Shown one piece after another: positions 19,749-47,054 of a stretch of 64,000 nucleotides of DNA; position 1 is the stretch's first letter; each line of letters begins with the position of its first letter. The DNA comes from a bacterium. Its GTDB lineage: Bacteria; Electryoneota; JAOADG01. Position numbers and translations under genes: made by a program. The notes below the pieces were generated by a model. It was not told the origin of the DNA. It made no database searches and saw only the letters and a program-made list of their open reading frames with translations. The stretch lies in contig OY820579.1 in assembly GCA_963681965.1 (NCBI GenBank), positions 2,256,835-2,320,834 on the forward strand, in the 5' to 3' direction.

Positions 19749-22700
19749 TTAATTCTGAATCGTGCCGTGTGCGCTCAATTGATTCAGAACTTCCGATGCG
19801 GGCGTGCCCTGCGGAATATTCCGAATAATTCGATCGAACGTATCGCCGTCGCCTAACCATGCCTTCACCTGATAGTGCATCGACGGGCTGTGACGAACTA
19901 CGCCGAGATGCTGCGCAACTGTAGCCGACGTGGTAAAGGTCAAGAAGTAGTAGGAAGCTTCGTTATACGGATTCGATGCATTGAATAGCACCAGATAACG
20001 GGCGACCGATACCGGGAAATTGTTCACCGATTGCGTCACCGGGCTCCAGCTCAACGATGCATCATCCACGGCGGTATTCACAATCAGGTTAGCCGGTGCT
20101 TGCGGCGTCGTCTTGCCACTGCCGGTTACTTCGACTGTGAAGGTGTCGATATCGACGCCATTCGCAATGAACTTAAACGTAGCAGTCTTCGTTCCGGCAC
20201 CTTGCGGTTGGAAATTAATCGAAGCGCTGACGCTGCCATTCGCTGGAATAGTCGGATCGGCTGGCATCGTTACCGTGAAATCGGCATTCGCGCCAGTGGC
20301 AGTAACCGGAGTCAATGAGACATTACCGGTATTTGCCAACATGATGTTTTGACTGGTGCGGTTCCCTGCTTCGGTTAGGTCAAACGAAACTGTCGAAGTC
20401 GCTACCCGGAAGTATGCACCGTTACCGGTACCCGTCAACGGAATGGCAATTGCCGTGTACGGCGAGCTGAACGTGATGTTCAGCGTATCGTAAACAGATG
20501 CAATCGAGTCGGGGGTAAAGGCGATCCGGAACCGCAATGAGTCCGTACCGGTCGCAGTTGAATCGCTGTTCGACAACGTCACCGTGAACCGCGGATTGTT
20601 GTGAGTAAAGGTCAATGCCTTAATCGATAATTGACTGCGGCTGGCAACTGCCACCGTTTGATTCGAGGAAGTCGTACCTACCGGAATGCCACTGTAAGTC
20701 AACGTCGCCGGATTGTAGGATACACTTGGATTCGCCCGGATCGTGAAACTGGTCGAAGAGATGCGATAGATCCACGGATAGTTGACCGCACGGATACGAA
20801 TGCGGGCATTCGTCGTGACCGGTCCCGTGATATTCCACAACACTATCTGCTGCGACGAGGGGAATGTTCCAATCGTTTCCCAGGCACCCGACGAGAAGTT
20901 GCGATTCATTTCAATTAACACGTTACCCGGAACATTCGAAACCGACCACTTGATCGTATCGCCGGACAACACGTTGAATACTTCGCCGCCAATCGGCTTC
21001 GACATATTGATGGCACGCGAAGAGATGCGGAAGTTCGTATCGGAGATATCGGTCGCAATCGGATAACTGACACTTCGGATGCGGACGCGCGCAGTCGTTG
21101 TCGTCGATCCTGCCGGTACGGGATAGGACAGTTGTCCCGCCGAAGCTGCTACTGTACCGATCGTATTGAATGTGCCGGTCGGATAGCTGGTGTTCAATTC
21201 GACCACCACATTCCCCGTCACGTTCGCTGACGTCCACCGTACTGTGGTCGTATCGTAGATGTACCAGTATTCGACGGCGTTGGGACTCGTCACGGTAATC
21301 GTGCGTGCCGCTAACGTCAAGTTGCCGCTGGTGGAATCCATCAGGGTCGGATAGGCAATACTGGAAATACGATACCGGAAATTGGTTACCGGTGTGCCAG
21401 TCAATGTCCAGATAAAACGCTGGTTGGATGCTGCAGTCGAACCGATAATTTGCCACAATCCGGCAGGATAGTTGTTGTTGTATTCCACCCGAACGTTACC
21501 GGTTAAACCGACCTGACTCCAGCGAACGGTATCGGCATCGCCAATATACCGGGTCGCCCCTGCAGCCGGTTCAAGATAAGTCAGCGAGCGATCCAAAACA
21601 GCCGTGTTCGCCGCGGTTTCCGCTGTCTGCGGATACGTTAATGATCGGACGCGGAAACGGGTATTGGTCGAAGCCGGTCCGGTGATTTGCCACGGGAATT
21701 GCAGATCGCTGTAAGTCGCAGTTCCGACATATTCCCAGGTTCCCGATGGATAGTTGCGATTAATTTCAATTGTCACTGCGCCTAGCAAACGCGTGCCAGT
21801 CCAAGCGATCGTCAGCGAATCGCCGGTGAACAGGGTATCGTTGCCCGCAGGGGTCGTCATGGCAACACTACCCAACAAGTCGAAGGTCAACAAGTCGCGG
21901 TTCGTGCCGTCGGTGCGCATGGCATAGAGCACGTAATCGTTGCGATACATCGAAACGATTTGACCGGATGATTGATAAAAACTGTCAACTGGAGTAATGC
22001 TGTTGAGATTGGAAATATCGTAGGTAATAATCCGATTTTGGTTCGTTCCTACATTCACGCCGAGGTACATGTAGTTACCGTCAATGCAATAAGAAGTCGG
22101 ATATCGTGCCAATCGGGCAATCAATACCGGAGCGATTGGAACCGAAACATCCCATACCAAAATACCTTGATATGTTCCCGAATTGACCTGCATATACAGG
22201 CGATTGCCTTCCAAATGCAACTGAATCGGGATCACATTCAATGTGTCGATTGAGGCTGCCAATGCCGGTTGTGCGGGATTGGTCTTGGTAAATACTTTAA
22301 AACCGTTGTCGTGCGAGCAAACCACGAGGTTGTTATTGGCATCGATACTATTCCAGTTGCCGGTACCGTCGTTGTAAGTCGCAGTCACGGTCGGCGAATT
22401 CAACGTCGTTACGTTGACAGTTCGCATTCCGTAATATCCACCGGCTACATACAGGTAGTTGCCAAATTTCACCATGTTCTGCGCATCGTTCGCACCAGTC
22501 TGCGAGCCCGATTGCGTCGGCGACGGATAGTTCGTACCAGCCATATTGTAGGTGCGGATACCGGCGGTATTCACTGCGGAATAGCCGTTATTACCGTCGT
22601 TGATGAATTGGAAGTACGACAAAGTAGTACTGGTGTAGTACCGGTTGAAACTAATATTGTCCGGTGGGGTCGCATTGTAAATACTAATGCGGTTCCCATT

Positions 22701-22892
22701 ACAGACATATAGATAGTTGGTTGCTGTACGATTCGAAATCGAGAAGAATTGACCGTACCCGTAATTGGGCGAGCTGCTACCGGATAGATTCTCGACACCG
22801 ATGTAATAAAGGTGTTGTGAGAATGAAAGTGATGACAGGAGCAGGATGAATAAAATGGACAGGAAGAATGCACGCGTACGCAATAGGGACAT
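19749..22892 (-). CDS. Large secreted repeat protein (N-terminal propeller-like region plus about six tandem ~95-aa Ig-like repeats)
   Basis: Signal peptide MSLLRTRAFFLSILFILLLSSLSFSQ; internal repeats with recurring W..TG..VRVEYN.NYP.G.W motif; no T9SS CTD seen. Confidence 0.65.
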   Translation of the reverse strand: MSLLRTRAFFLSILFILLLSSLSFSQHLYYIGVENLSGSSSPNYGYGQFFSISNRTATNYLYVCNGNRISIYNATPPDNISFNRYYTSTTLSYFQFINDGNNGYSAVNTAGIRTYNMAGTNYPSPTQSGSQTGANDAQNMVKFGNYLYVAGGYYGMRTVNVTTLNSPTVTATYNDGTGNWNSIDANNNLVVCSHDNGFKVFTKTNPAQPALAASIDTLNVIPIQLHLEGNRLYMQVNSGTYQGILVWDVSVPIAPVLIARLARYPTSYCIDGNYMYLGVNVGTNQNRIITYDISNLNSITPVDSFYQSSGQIVSMYRNDYVLYAMRTDGTNRDLLTFDLLGSVAMTTPAGNDTLFTGDSLTIAWTGTRLLGAVTIEINRNYPSGTWEYVGTATYSDLQFPWQITGPASTNTRFRVRSLTYPQTAETAANTAVLDRSLTYLEPAAGATRYIGDADTVRWSQVGLTGNVRVEYNNNYPAGLWQIIGSTAASNQRFIWTLTGTPVTNFRYRISSIAYPTLMDSTSGNLTLAARTITVTSPNAVEYWYIYDTTTVRWTSANVTGNVVVELNTSYPTGTFNTIGTVAASAGQLSYPVPAGSTTTTARVRIRSVSYPIATDISDTNFRISSRAINMSKPIGGEVFNVLSGDTIKWSVSNVPGNVLIEMNRNFSSGAWETIGTFPSSQQIVLWNITGPVTTNARIRIRAVNYPWIYRISSTSFTIRANPSVSYNPATLTYSGIPVGTTSSNQTVAVASRSQLSIKALTFTHNNPRFTVTLSNSDSTATGTDSLRFRIAFTPDSIASVYDTLNITFSSPYTAIAIPLTGTGNGAYFRVATSTVSFDLTEAGNRTSQNIMLANTGNVSLTPVTATGANADFTVTMPADPTIPANGSVSASINFQPQGAGTKTATFKFIANGVDIDTFTVEVTGSGKTTPQAPANLIVNTAVDDASLSWSPVTQSVNNFPVSVARYLVLFNASNPYNEASYYFLTFTTSATVAQHLGVVRHSPSMHYQVKAWLGDGDTFDRIIRNIPQGTPASEVLNQLSAHGTIQN

Positions 22893-23235
22893 CAGTGCCT
22901 CCAGAACGAGATTTAGCGAGATAACAGAATTACTATCTCTAGACACACTATTGAAGATCGAGGTTTAAGTAACGATCCATTTGCAGTAACTTTACCGCTT
23001 ACCGCAGCCAATTCGCACTCAATGACCTCTTCGAGCGAGTTCGAACCCGCTCGGGTATGGTTAACAAATCACAAACTTCAATATACCGTGGAACCTGTCA
23101 TGTGACAATCGAATTCGAAAAAAATCGAATTTTCTAACTGAATCGGCAGGAATGATTGATTTCAACCCAAAAAAATAACGCCCGAATTGTACGATAGGCA
23201 TGATACAATCCGAGCGTTAAATATCTGAATTTATT

Positions 23236-26404: not shown

Positions 26405-27112
26405 TCAATCGGTCTGAGGGATTGCGTCGGTCTGACCAATCCGCCAGGAAAATGGGTTGTAATCGCGATGAGTATCGACCACATCGCACTGATCGATCCG
26501 TTTCAATGTATTACACGCGAGATAGGTCACTGGAGTTGCAAATACTTCCACACCTACTTTAAAGATGTAATTGGAGAGGATGATGGTCCACAATAGCTCG
26601 CTGCTGATCGTACCGGCGAACGCTATCATGCAGAATAGACCCGTGTCGAGTGCCTCGCCGACCACTGTCGATCCGATTGTCCGCATCCAGAGATGTTTTT
26701 TGGGTTGAAACCGTTTCATGATCGACATGATCGTGTCATTCGACCACGAGCCGAATAAATATGCCGCCACCGATGCCATTACAATGCGGGTGGTCGAGAG
26801 TAATATGCTCTCGTATGCGGCTTGATTGGTCCACTCCGATGCCGAGGGTAACATTCCGACGACGGCGAATAGCGACACTGCCATTAATTGCGCGGCGAGA
26901 CCGATCCAGATCGTGCGACGAGCAATACGGAAGCCGTATACTTCCGTCAGGATGTCGCCAAAGATATAGGAGATCGGAAACAGCAATGTGCCGCCATCGA
27001 ATGTGAAATGACCGAGATTCACCAATTTGGTCGATGCCACATTCGAAATTAGGAGTACTGCTACGAAAAATCCGGTGATTGCCGGTAGCGATTTGTAATT
27101 ACGGTATTCCAT
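26405..27112 (-). CDS. yhhQ: Queuosine-precursor transporter YhhQ family (DUF165)
   Basis: Multi-TM protein with FPISYIFGDILTEVYGF signature. Confidence 0.8.
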   Translation of the reverse strand: MEYRNYKSLPAITGFFVAVLLISNVASTKLVNLGHFTFDGGTLLFPISYIFGDILTEVYGFRIARRTIWIGLAAQLMAVSLFAVVGMLPSASEWTNQAAYESILLSTTRIVMASVAAYLFGSWSNDTIMSIMKRFQPKKHLWMRTIGSTVVGEALDTGLFCMIAFAGTISSELLWTIILSNYIFKVGVEVFATPVTYLACNTLKRIDQCDVVDTHRDYNPFSWRIGQTDAIPQTD

Positions 27113-27677
27113 TGTTCCATTCGATTGATGATTTAAGCGTCATAATATAACGCAAATTCACAGCAAAAGGTAGTCGATCCAGTTAAATATAAGTTTATGA
27201 TTATTAGTAAGAAATATCGAGTTAAGAATTGTCAGTTGGTTATCCATCGCGAAGCGGTGGACTAAAAGAGTCCGCGTATTATTTATCCCGAAAATCTACT
27301 TACACACTTTTTACGTAGCCGCAGGCTTCAGCCTGCGTATTTTTATTTCTTGAATCTTGTATCTTGACATACGTGCGGATCCCCTCGCCTGCCCGTCTAA
27401 TTCTGTTTGGTAGGGGCGTTCTTACGCGTCCGCCCGTGTCAGGTGCATTAGCCACGATAGGGGCTTTTGGCAACCCCGAAGCGCTCACCGAAGGTATTAC
27501 GTCATCATCTTTTTAATTCAATATTTCAATATTCGCATTCTGCCAATTCGACTGTTACGGGCGGACGCGTAAGAACGCCCCTACCAAAAAAAAAGAAGAT
27601 TCGGAGATACCCTCTAATAAAAAAACGGGCGGTTCGAAAACCACCCGTTAATTCTTCTAAGTATCTAGTACCACCCG
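27113..27677. repeat. REP-like hairpin cluster
   Basis: gcggtggactaaaagagtccgcg, cgtagccgcaggcttcagcctgcg, gtaggggcgttcttacgcgtccgcccg with its inverted partner gggcggacgcgtaagaacgcccctacc, cgggcggttcgaaaaccacccg. Confidence 0.75.
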
Positions 27678-30600
27678 TTACTTCATGAACACCACTTTAC
27701 GCGTGGTCTTGAAGTTGTCGGCGGTAATCATCACGTAATACACGCCGCTGGCGTTGCCGCTGGCATTCCAATGCAGAGTATAGGTTCCGGCATCGAGGTT
27801 CCCTTGCGATAATACTGCTACTTCGCGACCGGTTTGATCGAACACCTTCGCCGAAACAAAACCGCTCTTCGGAACACTCAGTTTCATCGTCATCGAGGGA
27901 TTGAACGGATTCGGATACGCTTCCGAAACCACGTAATCCTTCGGTAACATCTGGGTCGCCGGTTGATCGACACCAGTGAATCCATCGGGAGTTTGCGTAC
28001 TGAATCGGATGATGTGGTTGTTGTGCAACTCTTCCGCACCCGGAGATGCGACGTGTGCAAACAACAGATCCAAACCGTCGGTGTGTTCCCAATTCATGAT
28101 GCCCATCGTTGTGTAGTTGTTGGTCTGATCGACATCGGATGAAGTGTGATACTGGAAATCGATAATGTTGTCGCTCGATGGTCCACGACGATCGCCGTAA
28201 AGAATGATTTCGAATTTCTGTCGGATCGGATTCGTTTCAATACCGTACCGCGAATATGCTTCCGCCCATTCGATGATATATTTCCGATCGCCGGGGGTGT
28301 TGTCCATTCGATAGAACAATCGGACTCGACCGCTATCAGCCGGATTCGAACCCTTCAAGTCGTCCCAGTTCGCCGCAAGCAACGTGCGCGGTCCCTGAGA
28401 ATTCGGCAGCGTCCAGTTGTAGAAATCATACATCCAGGTGCTGTCGAAGCTGACCCAACCATTCGAACAAATCGACAAGAATTGATTGTAAGTCCGACCG
28501 TAGAATGTGAATGGGAACGGTATCGCTTGCACATACGTGGTATCGTCTTTCAGAATGAGCGAAGTCCCGTTACCGCCCAGTGCCGTATCCAATTCGATCC
28601 AGTTATAAGTCGGTGTCGGCCACGTTCCGGTCGACGGTACGTCGATCTCTTCGTAGGCGTAGTAGCCGTAATTGTCCGGTCCGGTCGGCATCGTGCTGGC
28701 ACGGGTTCCGCAAGTGATATTGAACCACGTGGTCAATGTATCCGAACCACCGATGATCCAATTCAACATCCGAATGGGAATGATGTGTCCGGGTAGAATG
28801 GATTGGGCGATTTCCGCATCGAATGCTACAAAACCGCTATCGCGAATCGCCATATAATACGCCGCCGGTGTCGTGATATTCATGCCATTCGAGAAGGTGA
28901 CAAACTGGTAGTTGCATGCCGGAATGGCAGCGTTACCCTCACTCTTGAGATGCACTTGAATTGTCGTCGAGCGGCTGACACCCGGTGTTAACGACCCACT
29001 CTCGACGACGATCCCGGAGATCCGCGGTAATGCCCAAGCGACTGGCATGGCGAAATCGACGGCACCCGAAGCGAACGTCAAGCGAAGCGATTCCGGTGTG
29101 CGATCTGCCAGGGATACGACTTTCACGCGATAAGTCAGGGATGTGGTAGCACCGGCATTCACCGTACCGGCATTGGAACTATTGTTGAGAATGACCAACC
29201 GGTTGCGCGTATTCGTTTGCGATAAAATCGCCTGCGAAGCGGCTGCGGTCGTTCCCACATTCTTGATTAAGATGTTGATATCGCCTTCGACACCCGGGCT
29301 GGGCAGTGTATTGGGAATATTGAAGAACACTGAATCGACCCGGAACTGACCAATCAAAGGATTATTAGTTTGAATGTAGTTGATAACTGGACGGTAGTTA
29401 CCGCCGCGAACCGCGATTCTAACGGTATCGTTTGCGACGATCCGCAATGGTAACGTGGCATATCCTTGAGCATCAGTAAGCGAGACTGCTGGATTAGCAC
29501 CAGCATTTCCGACGATCAGCGCTGCAACCATATTCGGCAAAGGATTACCTGTTCGCTGATCGACTGCGCGAATCGTCATCGAAGACGAAGCTGGATTCAA
29601 TGTCGTCGGGAATGTCACTTGCATCGTGTCAGGTGTTTTGTACCATAACGTCAATGACGGATCGCCAAGGATGTTGTAGAACCGGAAATATTGTTCGACT
29701 GCCGTCATCTCATTCGGGAAACCTTGATACACTTCCAATTTTCCGCGCAATGTTGCCGGACCCAGTTTATTGAGACCGTCATTCAGCCAGCCGTGCAGCA
29801 ATCCAGCCAGAATTGGGTTGTTATAGCGTGTGCTGGTATGCAAGTGGGCTGCACCGAAGAAAGCCGGACCGCATTTCGGTACACTTGGCGAACCGGTTTC
29901 AACCCATGCTTCGCCGAAGCATTGGTTGCCGTCGACTTGCGAATTTAATGCGGCATACCGACCATTCTGACAGACGATCGATAGCATTACTGCATCGTTT
30001 CTGGTGACATTAGCCAAGTCACCTCGCTGTAATCGAGGGTAGAGTGGACCTTGGCTATCGCCCCAGCCGCGATAAGTGATTAGCGAAACACCTTGATTGA
30101 TTAACGCAAGAATCGAATCAGTACCTGGTGCCGGTTGCATCGGATAAAGATAGGTACTGACATTGTAACCAAAGTCACGCAACATCTGTGCTGCCCAACG
30201 GGTATTTTCCGTGGGAGTGATCGGTGGGCTACCCGTGTCGGAATAGTTGCCGGCGAAGCAGAATGCTTTATTCATGTAATTCGTATTCGCTGGGTTTCCA
30301 GTTCCGGGGGAATTTTGATGTTGTTGTGTTTTGTTCACGATCGTAGCAAGTCCTGTAGTAGAACCATAGGAGATTCTACCCAGAAATGCTTCCGGCCAGA
30401 AGTCAGAACCATCCAGCAATACATAATTCAAGTCGGAAGGAACCGTTTCCGCTGCCGAAACGGTAAACGGAAACGTCGGGACATTGTCCAATCGGTCGGC
30501 ATCGCCGATAATCGCGACATATTCGACTGGAAGCGTATGTGCCAACGAATTGTAGACATCGGCTATCAACAATTTGATCTGGTCGCCATTGGCTCCGGAC

Positions 30601-31391
30601 GGAATCAAGATCGTAGCGACATTATATCCTTCCATTTTCTTCAAATTGGTAAACGTGAGAAGTTGCGAATTATAAGACGCTGAGGAAGGACGCACGATCA
30701 CGTAAGTACCCGGTCGCCACAACAGGGATCGTCCCATCGAGAATGGGTTATAACCCAAAAACATCGTTTCATAGATCCCGTGATAGGATGGTGTGATCGG
30801 ACCGGTTAATGTCGGTCCTGCTACAGTCGCAGTCAACGTGATCGTTAGTTCGCTGATCGCTTCGATGGTGCCGTCGGATAGTTGGCGCAACGGATACACG
30901 GTCACCGGAACGACGCCGAAATCCTTGAAGACACCCGGTTCGCCGACAGTCACGCGCGGCATCTCGCTGGATTTCGCCAACGGGGTGTTGGGGAATTCCG
31001 GATCGCTGGCGATCGCAACTGCGCCGCCGAGTCGGTCCGTCGTGATATGTTCCGTACGTCCGGCAACGACACTGGCAGTCGCTTTCACCGCAAAATTGAA
31101 GGGGACGAATACGGTCACGCCGGAAATATCGGGGGTACCTAATTTCGGAAACGCTTCGTGTTGTCCACCAACGCGAAGAGCAACGCCGTTGGTCGCTTTC
31201 TCAACCGCGAAGCCATTCAACTTCACTGTGAAAGTGACCGTGGTTGCGCTGCGATTGAGTTGATCGACGTTGGGGGATGGGGTGCCGACTGCCGCGGATG
31301 ACGCTGCATCGGACAGCCAGACGGTTTGCACGGGAGCAGCAAATGCGCCGAGTGCAACGATTAACAGGATCGAAAGAAGTAACCTTCTCAT
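27678..31391 (-). CDS. Peptidase C25 (gingipain-like) family secreted protein with T9SS C-terminal sorting domain
   Basis: Signal peptide; C25-like core around YVAIIGDADRL and the later region with conserved His and Cys; C-terminal KVFDQTGREV...GVYYVMITADNFKTTRKVVFMK. Confidence 0.6.
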   Translation of the reverse strand: MRRLLLSILLIVALGAFAAPVQTVWLSDAASSAAVGTPSPNVDQLNRSATTVTFTVKLNGFAVEKATNGVALRVGGQHEAFPKLGTPDISGVTVFVPFNFAVKATASVVAGRTEHITTDRLGGAVAIASDPEFPNTPLAKSSEMPRVTVGEPGVFKDFGVVPVTVYPLRQLSDGTIEAISELTITLTATVAGPTLTGPITPSYHGIYETMFLGYNPFSMGRSLLWRPGTYVIVRPSSASYNSQLLTFTNLKKMEGYNVATILIPSGANGDQIKLLIADVYNSLAHTLPVEYVAIIGDADRLDNVPTFPFTVSAAETVPSDLNYVLLDGSDFWPEAFLGRISYGSTTGLATIVNKTQQHQNSPGTGNPANTNYMNKAFCFAGNYSDTGSPPITPTENTRWAAQMLRDFGYNVSTYLYPMQPAPGTDSILALINQGVSLITYRGWGDSQGPLYPRLQRGDLANVTRNDAVMLSIVCQNGRYAALNSQVDGNQCFGEAWVETGSPSVPKCGPAFFGAAHLHTSTRYNNPILAGLLHGWLNDGLNKLGPATLRGKLEVYQGFPNEMTAVEQYFRFYNILGDPSLTLWYKTPDTMQVTFPTTLNPASSSMTIRAVDQRTGNPLPNMVAALIVGNAGANPAVSLTDAQGYATLPLRIVANDTVRIAVRGGNYRPVINYIQTNNPLIGQFRVDSVFFNIPNTLPSPGVEGDINILIKNVGTTAAASQAILSQTNTRNRLVILNNSSNAGTVNAGATTSLTYRVKVVSLADRTPESLRLTFASGAVDFAMPVAWALPRISGIVVESGSLTPGVSRSTTIQVHLKSEGNAAIPACNYQFVTFSNGMNITTPAAYYMAIRDSGFVAFDAEIAQSILPGHIIPIRMLNWIIGGSDTLTTWFNITCGTRASTMPTGPDNYGYYAYEEIDVPSTGTWPTPTYNWIELDTALGGNGTSLILKDDTTYVQAIPFPFTFYGRTYNQFLSICSNGWVSFDSTWMYDFYNWTLPNSQGPRTLLAANWDDLKGSNPADSGRVRLFYRMDNTPGDRKYIIEWAEAYSRYGIETNPIRQKFEIILYGDRRGPSSDNIIDFQYHTSSDVDQTNNYTTMGIMNWEHTDGLDLLFAHVASPGAEELHNNHIIRFSTQTPDGFTGVDQPATQMLPKDYVVSEAYPNPFNPSMTMKLSVPKSGFVSAKVFDQTGREVAVLSQGNLDAGTYTLHWNASGNASGVYYVMITADNFKTTRKVVFMK

Positions 31392-32217
31392 CGGTGTTTC
31401 CTCCTCTTGGTGAACAGTCCCGGTATGAAACGAAAACTTCCGACAAAAAAACGCAAGCCGAAAATCAATCCGCTCAGTCGATCCGGGGGCAGCGGTTGCA
31501 CCTGTTTATGATCTCGCCACTGTAGCCGCGAAAGTTTCGAGAGAATCTCAATACTACAGTTACAATATGCATTCAAAGCCGGATAAAAGCAATATGCAAC
31601 AACGATTGCGAATGAAAATCAATCTTGATAACACATTTGCACACAACTTCCCAGAAGTGATTACTATTTATACAGATATTAGCTACTTACCGGAGGTAAA
31701 GGATGCTCTCTGCAGATGATCGGTTGATTTGTCGTTGCGAGGACTGCAGCGAAGGAACATGCGAAGCATTTCCGAAGCGGAAGGACGAAGCAATCTATCT
31801 TGAATCCTGTTTTCTCTAGTAGGGGTGGGTCCCCGCGCCCGCCCGTTCTTGTATCTTTATTTCTCTTTTCCCAATCCCCAATGCCTATTTCTCCATCACC
31901 CATTCTATGCGTCAGGCGCTGCCTGCCGCTTGGGGCGAATGCGATTCGCCCCTACGGAAAAAACGCGGACTAAAGTCCGCCGCTACCATGATGAATTGTC
32001 AGGCTGAAGCCTAACTTCCGATTTCAAGAGACAGATACACCGAACCTGCGATTCGCTTCCTTTCCGTAGGTCAGAACTTGTTCTGACCATTTCTTGTATT
32101 TTTTTTCTCTTTTCCCACCACCTACAACCCACTACCCACCACCCGTTTGGTTGATTTGTCGTTGCGAGGACTGCAGCGAAGGAACATGCGAAGCATTACC
32201 TCAGTTTCTTCCCGACG
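31392..32217. repeat. REP-like hairpin cluster
   Basis: Two copies of the ~70-nt cgttgcgagg element, gtaggggtgggtccccgcgcccgcccg, ccgtaggggcgaatcgcattcgcccc (reverse), gcggactaaagtccgccgctacc, gtaggtcagaacttgttctgacc. Confidence 0.75.
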
Positions 32218-33017
32218 GTGCATCTCTCCTACAAATTGAGCAAACTAAATGAATTGCAATTGAGTTACAGTCGGCGCGTGCGGCGACCGGATGGTGAGGA
32301 TTTGAATCCATTCCCGGAATATCGCGATCCGTTGAATGTCTGGGCGGGAAATCCGAAACTGTTGCCGGAATATGTGAATGTGCTGGAACTCGGTTGTCAA
32401 TATCTGAATGGCGGATTGATGTTGGTACCGGCGCTGTTCTACCGCAACACGAATAATCGCTTTACCCGGGTCACGCAGACACTGCACGATTCGATCGTCT
32501 TGACGACCATGGAAAATCTGGCTTCCGATCAATCCGGCGGTATCGAATTGAATGTGTCGTGGAATCATCAGAAATCGTTTTCGCTTCACGGATACAGTAG
32601 TGTGTTTTTCGATCAGATCGATGCCACCAATCTTAACAATACAATGGAAAGAAGAATGTTACGACGTGGACCAGCAATATCACGATGGATGTCAATTTGA
32701 CCGAGACCAGCCGGTTTCAACTCAACTCGAATTACAATTCGGCACGATTGACGGCGCAAGGGAAAAACAAACCGTCGTATTCGCTCAATTCCGGTTTTCG
32801 ACAAGAATTGTTTGAAGGAAAATTGACGATCACTGCGACCGTCACGGATATCTTCAAGACGATGAAACGGGAATTCGAGTTGAATATCCCGACGCTGCAG
32901 CAAACATCGGTGAATAAGCGCGACTCGCGCGTAATGTACGTCGGATTGAATTATCGCTTCGGTTCGCAGAAGAAGAAAGCGAAAGAAGACCAGATTAAAT
33001 ACGATGACGGGTTGTAG
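32218..33017 (+). pseudogene. Remnant of an outer-membrane beta-barrel protein gene (C-terminal ~265 codons, frameshifted)
   Basis: No signal peptide or N-terminal domain; reading frame switches near 32650-32700 between track ORFs 32218-32700 and 32685-33017; ends with beta-barrel-like ...YVGLNYRFG; 5' side abuts the repeat cluster. Confidence 0.45.
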
Positions 33018-33040
33018 AATAGATCGCCGTAAAATGTATA

Positions 33041-33068
33041 CGGGCGCTTTGCAGCGCCCGTTTTTTTT
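33041..33068 (+). terminator. Rho-independent terminator
   Basis: cgggcgctttgcagcgcccg hairpin followed by an 8-T run. Confidence 0.6.
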
Positions 33069-33134
33069 GTGTTTCTTACACTCGTTCGAATTTCGTGGTG
33101 AAGTGCCGCAGGATCGGTGGTTCGTAGGTGGTCC
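33068..33134. repeat. Left direct repeat: diverged duplicate of the tnaA 3' end (putative att remnant)
   Basis: gtgtttcttacactcgttcgaatttcgtggtgaagtgccgcaggatcggtggttcgtaggtggtcc is ~92% identical to 36341-36405; on the minus strand it still encodes ...TYEPPILRHFTTKFERV-stop. Confidence 0.7.
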
Positions 33135-33201
33135 TTAAAAGCTAGTTCAACATTCGAACTTAGAATATCAATTAATTGATTGCTAGATAATCTGAATTGG
33201 A

Positions 33202-34011
33202 TTAAATGTAAGGATCGTCCAATTTGCAGTAACTAGCATCAAGAATATTGGCTTTACAACAATAATTCATTAACCAAGTTACATGTTCTTCATCGATGGG
33301 TGGGATATCCTTCTTGAACAAAACGGCTCGATCCAATCTTCCGATCCACTCTCGCGCTTTAGTTACTAATTGAACCTCGATGATACGCGATTCTTGGATC
33401 ATAATTAAAAAATGGATAGCACGATAATTAGTGTCGTGGGAGTACAATTTCGGATTGAAATAATAATTTCTGCATCGATAAATTTTTCGATAAAAGTCAC
33501 GCCATATTTTTACTCCTAATTGCGCAAGTTCGTTAGGAGTCTGGACGACTATTCGAAATCGAACCAAGTCCCAAATATCGTATAAATATTCAGGATAATA
33601 CCCTAACCGTTTTCGTTTCTCAATCGATTTTGCGATTGATTCATCTGATTTCAAGTTACCAAATAAATGTTCGAGCGGAACTTGCGATTTCTCGATATAA
33701 TCAAGTAACACGAGTCGGGAAAAGTCAAAGACTTTCTGTTTCTCATTTTTATCCATCACAAAATCAGACCAGTCAGCGATATTTTGACTAATTCGAAAGC
33801 CTGTTTCCGGGATAACTATTAACTTTCTAGATAATAGATCTACTGACTGATCGTGAAGCAATTGAAAATTGGGATCTGCTGAGTTTGTTCCATTCTCAAT
33901 TTTATTGCCTAACTCTAAAAATTCGGTTCGATCTTTGTCAGAAAGTGAGCACCAGAATTGTTTGAACCATTTGTCATGGCACTCGCAGTATTCGATATGT
34001 CTTTGTAACAT
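33202..34011 (-). CDS. RelA/SpoT-like (RSH/small alarmone synthetase-like) nucleotidyltransferase-fold protein
   Basis: Ordered motifs with RelQ-like spacing: SIAKSIEKRKR, DIWDLVRFRIVV, NYRAIHFLIMI, IEVQLVTKAREW...LFK. By-eye match, not HMM-verified. Confidence 0.5.
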   Translation of the reverse strand: MLQRHIEYCECHDKWFKQFWCSLSDKDRTEFLELGNKIENGTNSADPNFQLLHDQSVDLLSRKLIVIPETGFRISQNIADWSDFVMDKNEKQKVFDFSRLVLLDYIEKSQVPLEHLFGNLKSDESIAKSIEKRKRLGYYPEYLYDIWDLVRFRIVVQTPNELAQLGVKIWRDFYRKIYRCRNYYFNPKLYSHDTNYRAIHFLIMIQESRIIEVQLVTKAREWIGRLDRAVLFKKDIPPIDEEHVTWLMNYCCKANILDASYCKLDDPYI

Positions 34012-34031
34012 TGAGCACTCAAAATTATTAA

Positions 34032-34652
34032 TTACGAGAAATAGATATCATTCTTTGCAAATGTTGATCGAACAGAGTCCTTTCTCTCAACAACAGCAAT
34101 TTTTTTTCCTTTCTTATGAAGTAATAGAAATTCTTTGTTTACTAAATCTTTAATGCGATAATACATTTCACTCGGATTTTGAACTTTGTCAACTTGCCAT
34201 CTCTGAAAATTCGTAAATAAATCTTCAAGAGTGATCTGATCTAATGAATACTCGTATATAAATTCAATTATCTTTTTCTGAGTAAAAGATAATTTTCTAT
34301 AAGAATCCACTAATTTCAGTTCTTGATCTGCAACACTAGGAGCACTCTCGATGGGTATTTTAGATACTGATGTAACAGAATAAAGCGAATATTCGTTAGG
34401 TTTTTGTTTTAAATTAGATTTATGTGAAAGATATGTGAACAAAATCACGAAAAATAATCCAATTAATAATTCAAACACACCTATAAATACTATTAACCCA
34501 TTTGGGTGAGCACGATAAATTATATTATTTGTTTGATTATGCCATTCGAAAATTCCTAATAAAATCATAACTGTTCCACCAAGAACAAATATTGCATCGA
34601 TTCTTGCCTTAAAAAGACTTTTTAAAAGTTCGAACATAATGATCCCTTTCAA
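34032..34652 (-). CDS. Membrane protein: two N-terminal TM helices plus ~110-aa C-terminal winged-helix-like domain (paralog 1)
   Basis: Shares with the next gene the pattern ELLK..KA..D.I.VL.G..M.LLGIFEW..Q.NNII.R.HP and a C-terminal block ...YYRIKDL...G..IAV.E. Confidence 0.55.
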   Translation of the reverse strand: MKGIIMFELLKSLFKARIDAIFVLGGTVMILLGIFEWHNQTNNIIYRAHPNGLIVFIGVFELLIGLFFVILFTYLSHKSNLKQKPNEYSLYSVTSVSKIPIESAPSVADQELKLVDSYRKLSFTQKKIIEFIYEYSLDQITLEDLFTNFQRWQVDKVQNPSEMYYRIKDLVNKEFLLLHKKGKKIAVVERKDSVRSTFAKNDIYFS

Positions 34653-34703
34653 AATAATAAATTAGAGATTAATCGCTTTAAATTGAAATGAATTACCGGT
34701 TAA

Positions 34704-35249
34704 TTAAGAGCACAATATATTCTTTTTTTCCAAAGTTAACTGAACAAAACCAATTTTCTCAATGACAGCTATATTTCTTCCAATATTATGAAGATTAATG
34801 AAACCATTATATTTTAGATCTTTAATTCTATAATAAAATTCGTTTTTGTTTTGAATAATTCCAGGTCTCCAGGCTTGAAAACCATCGAAAAGCACTTCGA
34901 GAGAAATTTCATTTAATAAATGTTGGTAAATAAATTGTACAATCAGCATTTGTGTTAATGTTAAATTGTGATAAGATAAGACTAACTGTTCTTCATAGTC
35001 TCGTTTAGGACTTGCCATCTCCGAATGAACTCTCTGTTGAATATAGAAATTAATAATATAGAGTGAAATACCAATTAATGTTAACAGAATCCCAATAAAA
35101 ATGACAAAACTATGAGGATGTGTTCGAATAATAATGTTATTTAATTGACCATTCCATTCAAAAATACCAAGCAGCAACATCGAAGAACCAACAAGCACTA
35201 AGATGACATCAACTTTTGCTTTAAGAACGCCTTTAAGTAGTTCTAGCAT
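34704..35249 (-). CDS. Membrane protein: two N-terminal TM helices plus C-terminal winged-helix-like domain (paralog 2)
   Basis: Paralog of 34032-34652; start overlaps the stop of the upstream NTase gene (35243-35249). Confidence 0.55.
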   Translation of the reverse strand: MLELLKGVLKAKVDVILVLVGSSMLLLGIFEWNGQLNNIIIRTHPHSFVIFIGILLTLIGISLYIINFYIQQRVHSEMASPKRDYEEQLVLSYHNLTLTQMLIVQFIYQHLLNEISLEVLFDGFQAWRPGIIQNKNEFYYRIKDLKYNGFINLHNIGRNIAVIEKIGFVQLTLEKKNILCS

Positions 35250-36130
35250 GATAAAGCTCGTCTTGGAAGAGAAATATGATTTTTTTCGATAAGTACAATT
35301 TGAGTACTAAATTTTATCTTTACTCTTATAGCGCAATCGGCTGAAAAGCAATTTGGGTGGTTGCCCTTAGTCGACTCAAATAAAAGAATATTTTCTTTCA
35401 TATGAATTGGAAGCGATGATTGTAATGGCATTTGATAATAATTTTGGACGTACTCCTTCATACAACAAAAATAAAAATAGTATGCTGTGGCTTGTTGAAT
35501 CGGTAGAGTGCTGACTTGCAGTGAATCAATAATTTTGTGTTCTTTTAACCACCAATCACATAAAACAAGAAACTCGTAATCAACCAATCCCCCAGCACCG
35601 CTTTTAAAATCCCAATAATGTGGCGATTTTGGGTCGTCGTATTCATCGCTGCGATGTGGGTTTCCGAGGAAGAATCTGTGCAAATTATCGAATGAAGTAT
35701 TTTTCAACCAATACTTGAATTTACTAATAAATTCTTGGTAGATCGACTGGTTTCCTGCAAGAAATCGAAGGTGAGGAAAAGAGACAAGTAATGGAAAAGA
35801 GTAGGTGTCGATTGCTTTATCGAGAGAATTAATGATGAAATGCGTTGGATGATTTGGTGTGTATCGTTTAAGTAGCGATTTTATCAAATCGCGATCAATG
35901 TTTGGTGATCGATAAAGAACGAAGAAATCAATATCGGAAAACTGATTTGGATGACCGCGAGCGTAGCTTCCCCTTAAACAGATAGCAAAAGTTTGATTAT
36001 TCAAAAATGAAGAAATATGCTCTTCGGAAAGATAGGCGTGAAGTTGTTCAACTCGTTTTAAGAATTTCTCTTGATATGTCAGCGATAATTTTAAGAATGT
36101 TGTCGGGTTGTTTGTGATAAACATAAACAA
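35243..36130 (-). CDS. Nucleotidyltransferase with Pol-beta-type motif and GlnD/GlnE-like second motif
   Basis: GSYARGHPNQFSDIDFFVL (GS-x10-DxD) and ~120 aa later DFKSGAGGLVDYEF, resembling the GlnD/GlnE uridylyl/adenylyl-transferase signature. Confidence 0.55.
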   Translation of the reverse strand: MFMFITNNPTTFLKLSLTYQEKFLKRVEQLHAYLSEEHISSFLNNQTFAICLRGSYARGHPNQFSDIDFFVLYRSPNIDRDLIKSLLKRYTPNHPTHFIINSLDKAIDTYSFPLLVSFPHLRFLAGNQSIYQEFISKFKYWLKNTSFDNLHRFFLGNPHRSDEYDDPKSPHYWDFKSGAGGLVDYEFLVLCDWWLKEHKIIDSLQVSTLPIQQATAYYFYFCCMKEYVQNYYQMPLQSSLPIHMKENILLFESTKGNHPNCFSADCAIRVKIKFSTQIVLIEKNHISLPRRALSC

Positions 36131-36300
36131 TACCTATGCAAACTTCATTCGATCACAGTAGTAAAAAAATCCATAAATAGTTTCTTCATGAGGCAATTAG
36201 TATTCTTGTAAAGATAATAATAAACTAAACAAATTCAAAATGGTATTTGGTAAAATATAAACAATCAACTTACATGTTGACGAGATATCTAAAAAATAAT

Positions 36301-36320
36301 TCCGGTAAAACTATACCGGA
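36301..36320 (-). terminator. Candidate terminator for tnaA lying inside the island
   Basis: Hairpin ccggtaaaactataccgg immediately 3' of the tnaA stop, followed on the minus strand by a T-rich run. Confidence 0.4.
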
Positions 36321-36338
36321 ATTATCAATTAAGTTAAA

Positions 36339-36405
36339 TTGTGTTTCTTACACCCGTTCGAATTTTGTGGTGAAGTGCCGCAGGATCGGCGGTTCGTAAG
36401 TGATC
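36339..36405. repeat. Right direct repeat: functional 3' end of tnaA
   Basis: gtgtttcttacacccgttcgaattttgtggtgaagtgccgcaggatcggcggttcgtaagtgatcc; encodes ...ITYEPPILRHFTTKFERV-stop in frame with tnaA. Confidence 0.7.
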
Positions 36406-37715
36406 CGCAGACCTTTGATTTTGTGAGCGCGATCTTTCAACTTCTTCATCCCGTCGGCAACAAATTCGAGATGCGAATTCGTGTATGCGCGTCGCGGAAC
36501 GCAAAGCCTTAGCAATTCCAATTTCGGATAGCGGTTTTCGCGGGTTACCGGATCGCGATCCGCCAGTACCGTGCCAATTTCCACACCACGGACACCCGCC
36601 TCGATATAGGCTTCCACGCCCAGCACCTGCGCCGGGAACGCTTCGCGCGGAATATTCGGCAACAATTTCAAGGCATCGACGTAGATCGCATGTCCACCTG
36701 CCGGCTGTACGATCGGAATGCCGCGTTCCAACAAGAGATCGCCGAAATATTTCACCTGAGCCAACCGGAATTCGAGGTAATCTTCTTCAACACCTTCGCG
36801 TAGACCGACCGCCAATGCTTCCAAGTCGCGTCCCGATTGACCGCCGTACGTCACGAACCCTTCAAACAGAATTCCGAAAATCGAGCACTGACGATACAGC
36901 TCTTCGTCGCGACAGGCAATAAAGCCACCGATATTCACCAGCGCGTCCTTCTTCGAGGACATCGTGCAACCATCTGCCATGGAAAATAGTTCGAGGGCAA
37001 TTTCTTTGACCGATTTCTGTGAATATCCATTTTCGCGCTGTTGAATGAATTTGCAATTTTCGGCATAGCGCGCGGCATCGATGAATAATTTCACGTCATA
37101 CTTGTCGCACAAGGCTTTCACGGCACGGGCATTTTCCATCGAGACTGGTTGTCCGCCGGTGCTGTTACAGGTAACCGTGAGTAATACGAAGGGAATTAAT
37201 TTCTTCGGAGCATATTCCTGCAAAACCGATTCCAGTTTTTTCAGGCAGACATTCCCTTTGAACGGATGGATCAGCTCCGGATCGAAAGCGTTGTCGTCGG
37301 TGCAGTCGATCGCGTGCGCTTTGCGATATTCGATGTGTCCTTTGGTCGTATCGAAATGCGAATTGCCGGGAATGACTTCTCCTTCGTGAACCAATACACT
37401 ATGCAGTACGTTTTCGGCAGCACGCCCTTGGTGGGTGGGGAGGACGAAGGGAAAACCCATGATATCCTGAACCGCTTTTTGGAAATTGTAGAATGAGCGC
37501 GCACCGGCATACGATTCGTCGCCCATCATCAACGCTGCCCACTGCGCATTCGACATCGCGCCGGTACCACTGTCCGAGAGCATATCGATGAAGACATCTT
37601 CCGAATGCAAGCCAAATAGATTGTAGCCGGTTTCCTTGATTTTTTGTTCCCGCTCGTCGCGCGGCAGGAGCCGGATCGGCTCAATCATCTTGATTCGGTA
37701 GGGTTCTGGAAACAT
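36348..37715 (-). CDS. tnaA: Tryptophanase / beta-eliminating lyase family (PLP-dependent)
   Basis: PLP-lysine motif SSKKDALVNIGGF; overall TnaA/TPL-like sequence; start set to MFPEPYRIKMIEP. Confidence 0.85.
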   Translation of the reverse strand: MFPEPYRIKMIEPIRLLPRDEREQKIKETGYNLFGLHSEDVFIDMLSDSGTGAMSNAQWAALMMGDESYAGARSFYNFQKAVQDIMGFPFVLPTHQGRAAENVLHSVLVHEGEVIPGNSHFDTTKGHIEYRKAHAIDCTDDNAFDPELIHPFKGNVCLKKLESVLQEYAPKKLIPFVLLTVTCNSTGGQPVSMENARAVKALCDKYDVKLFIDAARYAENCKFIQQRENGYSQKSVKEIALELFSMADGCTMSSKKDALVNIGGFIACRDEELYRQCSIFGILFEGFVTYGGQSGRDLEALAVGLREGVEEDYLEFRLAQVKYFGDLLLERGIPIVQPAGGHAIYVDALKLLPNIPREAFPAQVLGVEAYIEAGVRGVEIGTVLADRDPVTRENRYPKLELLRLCVPRRAYTNSHLEFVADGMKKLKDRAHKIKGLRITYEPPILRHFTTKFERV

Positions 37716-37916
37716 CGTAACTCCGTTCAATAGTACTTCCCAGCGACACCTTCTTACCGAAAAATCCCGGAAGAAAGTGGTGAAACTTGGTTGATTCGCA
37801 GTATCCGGCAGCGAACTGACATTGTCCGGCAACCTGCCGGGTAAAATATAACCTCGAAAACCGCGATTCCGAAAAGTTTGTTTTTTATCGAAATACCTTT
37901 GAGTTTGCGATACCGA

Positions 37917-44700: not shown

Positions 44701-46030
44701 CCCAATTCATTCATAGCGAGAATATAATCCGATGCAATCCGTTTTGGTAGCGGCGGAGTAAAAGAGGCCGTTTTTTTTTTGCGTAGGGGCGTATGGCATA
44801 CGCCCGAAGCGGCAGGCAGCGCCTGACGCCGAGTATGTCTCCTGATATGTAAACAAGAGGAGTCGGAATAAATTCCGACCTACCGAAAAGAAGATGCACG
44901 CAGGTTTGGAGGTCTGCATCACCAACAGGATGGGAGTTGGGGGTTAGGAGTTGGGAATTTGGGGAAAAGATCGGTAGCGGCGGACTTTAGTCCGCTCTAA
45001 GTTCTGCTTTCTTTGTAGCCGCAGGCTTCATCCTGCGTTCTTGTATCTTTTTTGATCCTGTATCCTGCAGTGGGGTGACCCTCCGCGAACGCCCGCTCTT
45101 GTATCTTTTTTACCCCAATACCCACAACCTACCACCCACCACCCATTTTTCGTAGGGGCGTATGGCATACGCCCGAAGCGGCAGGCAGTGCCTGACGCCG
45201 AGTATGTATCCTGATATGTGAACAAGAGGAGTCGGAATAAATTCCGACCTACGGAAAAGAAGATACTCGCAGGCTCGGAGGCCTGCGCCACCAAAGACAA
45301 GACACAGGAGGTGGTCAGAACAAGTTCTGACCTACGGAAAAGAAGATGCACGCAGGTTTGGAGGTCTGCGCCACCATCAGGATGGGAGTTGGGGGTTAGG
45401 AGTTGGGAATTTGGGGAAAAGAGGGGTAGCGGCGGACTTTAGTCCGCTCTAAGTTCTGCTTTCTTTGTAGCCGCAGACTTCAGCCTGCGTTTTTTTTCTG
45501 ATTATGACACAAGAGGAGTCGGAATAAATTCCGACCTACGGAAAAGAAGATACTCGCAGGCTCGGATGTATGCACCACCAACAGGATGGGAGTTGGGGGT
45601 TAGGAGTTGGGAATTTGGGGAAAAGAGGGGTAGCGGCGGACTTTAGTCCGCTCTAAGTTCTGCTTTCTTTGTAGCCGCAGGCTTCAGCCTGCTTTTTTTT
45701 TCTGATTATGACACAAGAGGAGTCGGAATAAATTCCGACATACTTCCTGACACAGGAGGTGGTCAGAACAAGTTCTGACCTACGGAAAAGAAGATGCACG
45801 CAGGCTCGGAGGCCTGCGCCGCCAAAGACAAGACACAGGAGGTGGTCAGAACAAGTTCTGACCTACCGCAACACGATCCTCCTATCACCCAATCTTTTTA
45901 GTAGGGGCGGACCCCCGTGTCCGCCCGCTCTCTTTTTTTTTATTCCCCAACGCCCACAACCTACCATCCACCACCCATCTTGTAGCCCCCGCTGGCGGGG
46001 GTTGGGGGTGGTCGCGCCGGTAGGCGCGTG
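44701..46030. repeat. Large BIME-like mosaic of REP hairpins with partly duplicated 200-300-bp blocks
   Basis: Repeated gtcggaataaattccgac, gtaggtcagaacaagttctgacc, gtagcggcggactttagtccgc, gtagccgcaggcttcagcctgcg, gtaggggcgtatggcatacgccc and G-rich gatgggagttgggggttaggagttggg tracts. Confidence 0.8.
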
Positions 46031-46079
46031 AGCGAAGCAAAAAAAACTCGCAATCAAGTTTTTCTTTAGAATCTTCTTT

Positions 46080-46220
46080 TTAGGACTCTAGAGTCCACTA
46101 AAAACTCTGGACTCGGAATCTTCTGTATCTTTCCTCGTTACCTCTAAAGATTCTTTATTTAGCTCGCAGTATGACTCTAGAGTAAAGACTCTAAAGAAGA
46201 CTCTAGAGATAAAGACTCGG
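46080..46220. other. AT-rich region with iterated gactctagag-type repeats (iteron-like)
   Basis: ggactctagagtcc palindrome, then a run of gactcta(g/a)ag units ~13-15 bp apart; unlike the GC-rich REP families. Confidence 0.4.
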
Positions 46221-46467
46221 TTGATATTTTCATGTTGTTGTGAATACATCGGTTAGACGCGTTTTCTGAGTGATAAATTGGCATCATCGGTGGATAACTC
46301 CGATAATTCAATATAAATAATACACTTATCTAGAATTGTAATGTAAATGCTTCCGAGAGTCCGATTCCGGTTAGGATAATGTGGAGATTTTCGAATTTAT
46401 ATGTTTTGAATAATTAATGGATGCTTAAAATTGTATCGAATTTATTTTGCCGAAACAAAAATAACTC

Positions 46468-46498
46468 TTGACTTTTGCCTAAAAATGTATTATATTAT
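46468..46498 (+). promoter_or_regulatory. Candidate sigma70-like promoter upstream of the OB-fold gene
   Basis: cttgact (-35-like), ~17-bp spacer, tattat (-10-like); by eye only. Confidence 0.3.
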
Positions 46499-46697
46499 AT
46501 ACAAGATGGGGAATAGGTGTTGGGTGATGGGGAGTGGGGAAAAGAAAAAAAACGATTAAAACTTCCATTGGCACTGTGCATTCACATCATCAAACATCAC
46601 CAACCATCCAACTCCGACGCTTACTGCTGCGATCTCTGACCAACAAAGACTCTTTTATAAAAAATCTCACCGTATCTTCCGCGAAAGGAATCCAACC

Positions 46698-47054
46698 ATG
46701 TCCGATATCAATGAATGGTGGCTGCAAGGGCGTATCGGCGCCATTTCACCGCTTATCCCCGATCGCAAAACCAGCTTCTGCAAAGTCACCCTCGTTACCT
46801 CCACCCGCATCGATCACCGCCAGAAAGACATCGAAGACTGGCATGAAATCATCATGGGTCATGATGTCGCGGAACAATTCCTTTCCGAAGCTGCTGTCGG
46901 GAAAAAAATACGCTGTAAGGGATATCTTCTTCGGCGTCGAATCAGACCTAAAAACTCCAACATATCTCCAGAGTCACAAATGATTGCGACTTGGTATTCT
47001 ATCGACTGTGTGAAAAGGTTCAACGAGGCAAATCATATCAGATTCGTTGCCTAA
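46698..47054 (+). CDS. Small OB-fold, SSB-like protein (putative)
   Basis: 118 aa; weak resemblance to SSB/PriB-type OB folds (...DWHEIIMGHDVAEQFL...GKKIRCKGYL). Confidence 0.3.
   Translation: MSDINEWWLQGRIGAISPLIPDRKTSFCKVTLVTSTRIDHRQKDIEDWHEIIMGHDVAEQFLSEAAVGKKIRCKGYLLRRRIRPKNSNISPESQMIATWYSIDCVKRFNEANHIRFVA

Follow-up and report, generated by a model that had tools for sequence, protein, structure and literature searches.

Gene C, located on the minus strand at positions 33202 to 34011 of a 64,000-nucleotide (nt) stretch (the window) of contig OY820579.1 from an Electryoneota bacterium (assembly GCA_963681965.1), is the last gene of its operon and encodes a protein of 269 amino acids (aa) that is predicted to be a divergent RelA/SpoT homologue (RSH) pyrophosphokinase resembling the small alarmone synthetases (SAS). 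That this protein has the RSH fold and is catalytically competent is highly probable. Gene C is also very likely the fixed third gene of a conserved, horizontally mobile conflict module, here called A-B-C, in which it accompanies a nucleotidyltransferase (NTase; gene A) and an effector carrying either a TIR domain or two transmembrane helices (2TM; gene B). The best overall explanation, tentatively favoured by analogy with known defence systems, is that this module may be an anti-phage system of the abortive-infection type that acts through nucleotide signalling.

The open reading frame (ORF) listing gives gene C an ATG start and exactly the limits stated above, and the peptides that an earlier note on this DNA had quoted as synthetase motifs are present in this ORF in the order described there. 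The note had proposed an RSH synthetase-like fold, and the Pfam RelA_SpoT profile (PF04607) indeed matches significantly, at 32.1 bits (E=1.5e-7; gathering threshold [GA] 27), over residues 120 to 233 and profile positions 3 to 109 of 113. The long-RSH model TIGR00691 scores 14.9 bits, so far below its cutoff of 499 that gene C is not a long RSH. A single-sequence phmmer search of the PDB with gene C gave zero matches, and a family profile was required. The alignment of gene C and its 14 closest relatives (A1), used as that profile, matched RelP of Bacillus subtilis (6FGK) with an E value of 1.3e-5, as well as RelP of Staphylococcus aureus and RelQ (2BE3, 3L9D), whereas RelA and Rel were matched more weakly. 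The small alarmone synthetases RelP and RelQ (SAS2 and SAS1; PDB 6FGK, 5DEC, 6EWZ, and 2BE3) are therefore the closest known enzymes to gene C. The alignment to RelP and RelQ called for in the note includes equivalents of the catalytic Asp and Glu (D148 and E212). Among the toxic small alarmone synthetases (toxSAS), gene C has no significant sequence-profile match to any solved member (CapRel SJ46, 7ZTB; FaRel/FaRel2, 8PU1; Tas1, 6OX6; PhRel2).

All synthetase motifs of the gene C family align with those of RelP and RelQ in the A1 profile alignments. Against the solved RSH proteins, the family sequence giK..eSi..K aligns to RVKS.ESI..K, DlVRFRI to DIAGVRI, RNYYFrP to KDYIQTPK, YRAiH to YRSLH, EvQlmT to EIQIRT, and LdHavlFK to LEHKIYYK. 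The diagnostic residues of RSH synthetases are the Lys and Ser of Syn1, the Asp of Syn2, the Tyr-x-x-x-His of the G-loop, the Glu-x-Gln of Syn4, and a final Glu/Asp-His...Tyr/Phe-Lys (Syn1 to Syn5). Gene C presents K121, S125, D148, R153, Y196, R197, H200, E212, Q214, D227, and K233 in alignment with RelP and RelQ, and these residues are 85 to 99% conserved among 120 full-length representatives that are pairwise at most 50% identical and were aligned to the family profile. The positions conserved at 96% or more in this set (K121, D148, R151, R153, N182, Y196, H200, E212, and Q214) are exactly the RSH Syn1 to Syn4 residues, followed at 91 to 95% by G118, R197, D227, Y184, and P187. Because the best-kept positions are those of the RSH catalytic and substrate-binding motifs, the active site of gene C is under purifying selection. 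As judged from these alignments, gene C is related to the small (p)ppGpp synthetases, though very distantly, with a predicted activity of ATP-dependent 3'-pyrophosphoryl transfer.

The structure model is in agreement with this assignment. The synthetase fold of gene C, a five-stranded mixed sheet with flanking helices, is closest to solved RSH synthetases, and the similarity is higher to the housekeeping RelP and RelQ than to Tas1 or FaRel. The homology to RelP starts at approximately profile position 83, and four helices precede the RelP-homologous part in the model. The family-specific N-terminal extension is thus modelled as an all-helical module of approximately 78 aa, and not as the Cys/His-containing region of approximately 110 aa that had been described earlier. 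Within HIEYCECHDKWFKQFWC, which spans residues 5 to 21, A1 shows no conservation of C9, C11, H12, and C21, and a zinc finger at the N terminus was rejected on that ground; D13, F16, and W20 are only moderately conserved.

When 1.84 billion cluster representatives were searched exhaustively with the profile, the gene C family numbered 127 proteins at E<1e-30 and, at the looser limit of E<1e-10, 160; the majority are 260 to 300 aa long and matched end to end. An initial homologue search with gene C had found only 15 relatives. By these profile matches, gene C founds a distinct RSH subfamily of about 130 to 160 clusters at 50% identity. The family is present at 9 loci among 185,579 species-representative genomes, across unrelated phyla, and a metagenome scan contributed 22 loci. 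The host labels comprise Acidobacteriota, Gammaproteobacteria (Methylomagnum), Verrucomicrobiota, Myxococcota, Bacteroidota, and two archaeal metagenome-assembled genomes (MAGs), of which one (L022, Nanoarchaeia) holds the full A-B-C and the other (L024, an uncultured archaeon) only a fragment of C; these two could reflect cross-domain transfer or binning contamination. No relatives of gene C were found in the plasmid and phage record collections, and public sources hold no names for the A, B, or C proteins of the window. A more distant branch of the subfamily (L036 to L046; HMM E values of 1e-43 to 1e-56) is found without A and B genes. Its neighbours are NtrC-type REC-sigma54 AAA+ activators and TIR-like/Nuc_deoxyrib_tr, TPR-S/MAP3K_TRAF_bd, and TCAD9/APH-like proteins (for example, L038:1387-7150, L040:2611-4008, and L044:1426-3165), and this branch may represent a second type of conflict system that uses an RSH-like enzyme.

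The genes that accompany gene C are constant. All-against-all BLAST of the relatives' contigs revealed that the upstream proteins of 250 to 315 aa are homologous to gene A and that the middle proteins, whatever their N terminus, share a C-terminal domain of approximately 95 aa (Bc) with the 2TM proteins of the window. Hidden Markov models (HMMs) made for A, Bc, and C were run on the ORFs of the loci from the species-genome and metagenome scans, and all three match in 19 independent loci (the window, L003, L005, L008, L010, L011, L013, L014, L016, L018 to L023, L026, L033, L034, and L035), while two short contigs hold B-C only. The gene order is A-B-C, except at two loci where B-C is followed by a convergent A, and the genes overlap or stand a few nucleotides apart. 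In all loci the neighbours are a 2TM or TIR effector of 181 to 315 aa and an NTase of 250 to 315 aa. The earlier note had correctly placed gene C as a terminal gene, since it is the last both in the operon of the window and in A-B-C, but had taken it for a stand-alone RSH, which the 19 loci contradict. The pairwise distances A-Bc, A-C, and Bc-C co-vary equally (r = 0.52 to 0.56; Mantel p about 5e-4), which shows that the module is inherited as a unit; the same equality of the three correlations means that this mirror-tree test singles out no interacting pair.

The surroundings of the module are typical of mobile and defence regions. At L003 it lies with an integrase, an excisionase, a Rep element, and a caspase-like gene; at L013 with a relaxase, a coupling protein (T4CP), and ParDE; at L010 with a Schlafen-like gene and TraI; and at L014 with IS21 and HerA-like genes. 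Directly upstream of A-B-C, the element at L003 encodes a 530-aa caspase-like Peptidase_C14 protein and a 341-aa protein of unknown type (L003:3388-6362), and L010 encodes a Nuc_deoxyrib_tr-like protein of 283 aa (L010:3618-4469).

In the window, the module occupies a compositionally distinct islet. The GC content drops from about 0.50 to 0.28 to 0.38 between 33 and 36 kb, and the 3.2-kb segment from 33135 to 36338 has a GC content of 0.322, against 0.50 on either side. This segment is bounded by direct repeats of 68 nt that are 93% identical. The copy at 36339 to 36406 forms the working 3' end (the final 17 codons and the stop) of a gene on the minus strand (36348 to 37832; PF01212) for a beta-eliminating lyase of the tryptophanase/tyrosine phenol-lyase family. 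The copy at 33067 to 33134, which reads TTYEPPILRHFTTKFERV-stop, is an orphan duplicate of that 3' end, and the original bidirectional terminator (33040 to 33061) abuts it. This arrangement is what site-specific integration at a gene's 3' end leaves behind, the element having supplied a replacement for that end. The 3.2-kb islet is now devoid of an integrase or any other mobility gene, and no tRNA or Rfam structured RNA was found in or beside it. The four islet genes (A, B1, B2, and C) are tightly packed on the minus strand in a form of approximately 2.9 kb. At the edge of the islet, directly after the lyase stop codon, lies an intrinsic-terminator-like hairpin on the same strand (36295 to 36326; 13-bp stem and T-run), which from its sequence would insulate the module operon from lyase transcription. 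A weak promoter-like site upstream of gene A (36254 to 36283, minus strand; 9 of 12 matches in a consensus scan) is a candidate operon promoter, although such sites are no more frequent in the region than in shuffled sequences.

Gene A (35243 to 36130, minus strand) encodes a Pol-beta-superfamily NTase of 295 aa, or 293 aa from the ATG at 36124, which matches Pfam NTP_transf_2 with an E value of 2.3e-6 (28.3 bits; GA 21). It features a GS-x(9-10)-DxD active-site motif and a helical C-terminal half with a K-x-G-x-GG-x-x-D-x-EF motif. G54, S55, S65, D66, D68, K176, and G180 are shared by all 14 orthologues aligned; the third catalytic carboxylate was not located in this alignment. The gene A profile matches minimal NTases/MntA (5YEP), kanamycin/aminoglycoside NTases, and OAS2, and weakly GlnE and HalB; a few members also match DUF294 and GlnD_UR_UTase in the helical half, below threshold. 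Gene A thus shares the Pol-beta site with MntA/HepT and with GlnE/GlnD, but its family is about 250 to 315 aa long, whereas the NTase of MntA/HepT is approximately 100 to 140 aa and is paired with HEPN, and its matches to GlnD/GlnE stay below the curated thresholds. A type VII toxin-antitoxin (TA) system (MntA-HepT) was rejected, with a score of 18.3 bits to NCBIfam MntA (cutoff 60) and no HEPN gene in any locus examined.

Gene B is duplicated in the window. B1 (34704 to 35249, minus strand; 181 aa), which begins 7 nt before gene A ends, has two transmembrane helices and a C-terminal Bc at residues 85 to 181. B2 (34032 to 34637, minus strand; 201 aa, or 206 aa from the TTG at 34652) has two N-terminal transmembrane helices followed by a Bc domain recognized with an E value of 1.3e-37. 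The two proteins are paralogues with 41% identity and two hydrophobic segments each, and this tandem duplication contrasts with the single B gene at every other locus examined. Across the loci, the N terminus of B is either a TIR domain or two transmembrane helices, and the conserved Bc is present in all. The 2TM type occurs at 7 loci (8 proteins), with exactly two hydrophobic segments in each protein. The TIR type occurs at 13 loci (PF13676 at 40 to 60 bits; GA 28), and the catalytic-Glu motif S..C..E[YFW] is present in 13 of 13 proteins. These homologues combine a TIR_2/TIR profile match with the catalytic Glu, as expected of TIR NADase effectors; the window carries the 2TM form instead.

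Bc, folded from a two-sequence alignment, is probably a winged-helix domain according to the resulting model. Its ELYYRxKDL helix gave weak, non-significant profile matches to c-FLIP death-effector domains (E values of 0.1 to 0.7), whereas the low-confidence model resembles winged-helix domains and not death-effector domains. Searches with the 2TM protein and Bc in a word index of 5.8 billion proteins, a method that is itself limiting, returned only the query.

The exchange of TIR and 2TM domains on a constant domain, beside constant nucleotide-transferring enzymes, is the reason for favouring a signalling abortive-infection system. The effectors of CBASS, Pycsar/Pucsar, Panoptes, and type III CRISPR follow this pattern, and there the constant part serves as receptor for a nucleotide messenger. 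A swappable killing domain on a constant domain typifies the effectors of CBASS, Pycsar, Panoptes, and type III CRISPR (PMC12657218; bioRxiv 10.64898/2026.08.12.744502). Moreover, A and C both keep their catalytic motifs, which argues for chemistry rather than mere scaffolding. Upon infection, the RSH-like C would use ATP as the donor of a pyrophosphate group for the 3'-OH of a nucleotide or, alternatively, of a nucleotide or oligonucleotide made or modified by A. The 3'-pyrophosphorylated product would be read by the Bc domain of B, and activated B would then destroy NAD+ (TIR forms) or permeabilize the membrane (2TM forms). In the case of the window, the duplicated 2TM proteins would damage the membrane. 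By analogy, a messenger mechanism in which the product of C is read by Bc is possible, though somewhat less probable than the signalling system as a whole. In its most specific form, which is likewise no more than possible, C, alone or acting on the product of A, may make a dedicated immune messenger (a 3'-pyrophosphorylated nucleotide or short oligonucleotide) that is read by a new winged-helix-type receptor on TIR or pore-forming effectors.

The module shares several features with CBASS, Pycsar/Pucsar, Panoptes, type III CRISPR, and Hailong: a constant nucleotide-transferring enzyme, a TIR or 2TM killing domain attached to a constant receptor domain, and the organization as a compact mobile operon. 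Unlike the messenger systems, A-B-C contains no CD-NTase, cyclase, mCpol, Cas10, SAVED, CARF, STING, or cNMP-binding domain, and it has two different transferases, an RSH and an MNT/GlnD-like enzyme. CBASS, Pycsar, and Thoeris were rejected as identifications: PADLOC gave no match for B, including the transmembrane proteins of the window, or for C, and on gene A gave only weak PDC-S09 (minimal NTase) matches over approximately 40 residues. Kaur et al. 2020 report RelA domains only as rare fusions in other conflict systems. No description matching a system of RSH, TIR/2TM, and NTase was found in the literature, subscription-only papers being outside the scope of that search. The absence of the module from defence-system catalogues is attributed to its rarity and to its occurrence, so far, only in uncultured environmental organisms. 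A-B-C looks like an undescribed defence module related to known nucleotide-centred systems.

Several observations weigh against nucleotide signalling through C and Bc. Syn1 lacks the Arg of G-R-x-K, which is G or N in the family and N119 in the window copy; the Arg of Syn4 (E-I-Q-I-R-T) is replaced by V or M, here V216; and at position 228, which is His in 85% of the family, the window copy carries Arg (R228). Because of these deviations from RelP and RelQ, GDP or GTP cannot be assumed to be the acceptor, and the substrate of gene C may, from its motifs, be a different one. Bc is unlike any known nucleotide-sensor fold in a model of low confidence (predicted local distance difference test score [pLDDT] of 62). 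It is only mildly basic (median isoelectric point [pI] of about 8.9) and might just as well serve to dock a protein or to bind nucleic acid. The scheme gives no reason why the module should need two different transferases, the surroundings of the module loci contain no conserved gene for a dedicated messenger hydrolase, and PADLOC (2023), which models neither B nor C, lends no independent support for a defence system. Furthermore, the distant branch of the C family (L036 to L046) dispenses with A and B.

The alternative that survives best, though unlikely, is that C is itself a growth-arresting effector of the toxSAS type, which would pyrophosphorylate the 3'-CCA of tRNA or synthesize (pp)pApp with depletion of ATP. 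C would then be restrained through nucleotidylylation by A, as MntA acts on HepT in type VII TA systems, or through binding by Bc, until phage infection frees it, and the TIR or 2TM protein would be a second effector arm. The layout of toxSAS TA systems is not seen in the window: there is no adjacent small antitoxin gene, no HD/SAH or Panacea domain by Pfam, and no CapRel-like extension. CapRel carries a C-terminal pseudo-zinc-finger domain that serves as antitoxin and sensor, whereas gene C lacks this domain and is extended at the N terminus instead. The module also differs from toxSAS in having no secretion-system context and in its partners, an NTase and a TIR or 2TM-winged-helix effector. 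The lack of a sequence match to solved toxSAS, the greater structural proximity to RelP and RelQ than to Tas1 or FaRel, and the lack of a HEPN partner all speak against a toxin. In addition, the strictly conserved partner has its own killing domain, and two toxins in a minimal module are less parsimonious.

Two further schemes are improbable, to a similar extent. In the first, signalling is inverted: A, C, or both would constitutively produce a nucleotide or a short oligonucleotide by which B is kept closed, and B would be set free once phage nucleases, sponges, or nucleotide depletion remove this product, in the manner of Hailong (HalB/HalA) or Panoptes. The architecture required is identical to that of the favoured signalling system, the pairing of an NTase with a transmembrane effector recalls Hailong, and a winged-helix-like domain could hold an oligonucleotide. 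The faint matches of gene A to HalB (NCBIfam E=0.065; PDB 9DBH E=0.094) cover the GS-DxD motif only, so that the likeness is not significant beyond a generic active-site motif, no similarity to HalA or SAVED/CARF was detected in B, and the sequence gives no indication of the direction of signalling. Hailong itself was rejected as an identification, with 12.8 bits to NCBIfam HalB (cutoff 190) and E values of 0.09 to 0.12 to HalB in the PDB over 25 residues.

In the second scheme, A, C, or both would sense a phage component and activate B by binding Bc directly, with no diffusible messenger. That exchangeable effectors can share one constant docking domain is known from PANGU. Types I and II of this system comprise two genes, for a nucleoid-associated-protein sensor and for a GRel toxSAS or transmembrane effector, and the sensor binds the acidic DMK domain of these effectors (bioRxiv 10.64898/2026.04.06.716658). 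A-B-C resembles PANGU in combining a presumed anti-phage role with an RSH enzyme and in having alternative effectors, including transmembrane ones, that share a conserved C-terminal domain. In PANGU, however, the RSH is the effector and carries DMK, whereas here it is a constant component, TIR and 2TM are exchanged, and a third constant gene encodes a Pol-beta NTase. Membership in PANGU was rejected because the module has three genes, no nucleoid-protein partner, and a shared domain that is neutral to basic (median pI of about 8.9). Winged-helix domains often mediate protein contacts (cullin/APC2, NB-ARC), and the N-terminal extension of C, of approximately 78 aa, could be a docking or sensor module. 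What direct activation leaves unexplained is the near-absolute conservation of both catalytic centres. Finally, an ordinary housekeeping SAS of the stringent response, which the RelP and RelQ structures as closest relatives might suggest, is extremely improbable given the distribution and context of gene C, found not across a lineage or in a core genome but in scattered phyla, here in a low-GC islet with direct repeats, and with fixed conflict-type partners (NTase, TIR/2TM).

Beside the islet, two short overlapping ORFs of 160 and 110 aa (32218 to 33017, plus strand) match the beta-barrel of TonB-dependent receptors and OMP_b-brl_3, and this segment looks like a truncated, frameshifted receptor pseudogene. 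It is preceded by approximately 800 nt without a long ORF (31400 to 32200) and by a minus-strand gene (27678 to 31391) for a secreted Peptidase_C25 (gingipain-like) protein of 1237 aa with a type IX secretion C-terminal sorting domain, which points to a host of the Bacteroidota/FCB group. Elsewhere in the window, milder dips in GC content (0.41 to 0.46, against about 0.50) at 22001 to 23000, 27001 to 28000, 46001 to 47000, and 51001 to 52000 could point to other acquired segments.

RSH enzymes are known as regulators of the stringent response and, more recently, as toxins (toxSAS, CapRel, and PANGU). In A-B-C, a distinct RSH subfamily is the constant partner of swappable TIR or 2TM effectors and of a second NTase, the pattern that a signalling immune pathway leaves in genomes. 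Should C prove to be a toxin, the module would still represent a new three-component layout for the control of toxSAS. If the signalling interpretation is true, pyrophosphokinase chemistry would join the repertoire of immune second messengers, in a compact three-gene system whose TIR or membrane effectors carry a new receptor domain. It would be the first case of alarmone-type (pyrophosphoryl-transfer) chemistry serving as a private channel of anti-phage signalling, distinct from both global (p)ppGpp physiology and toxSAS poisoning.
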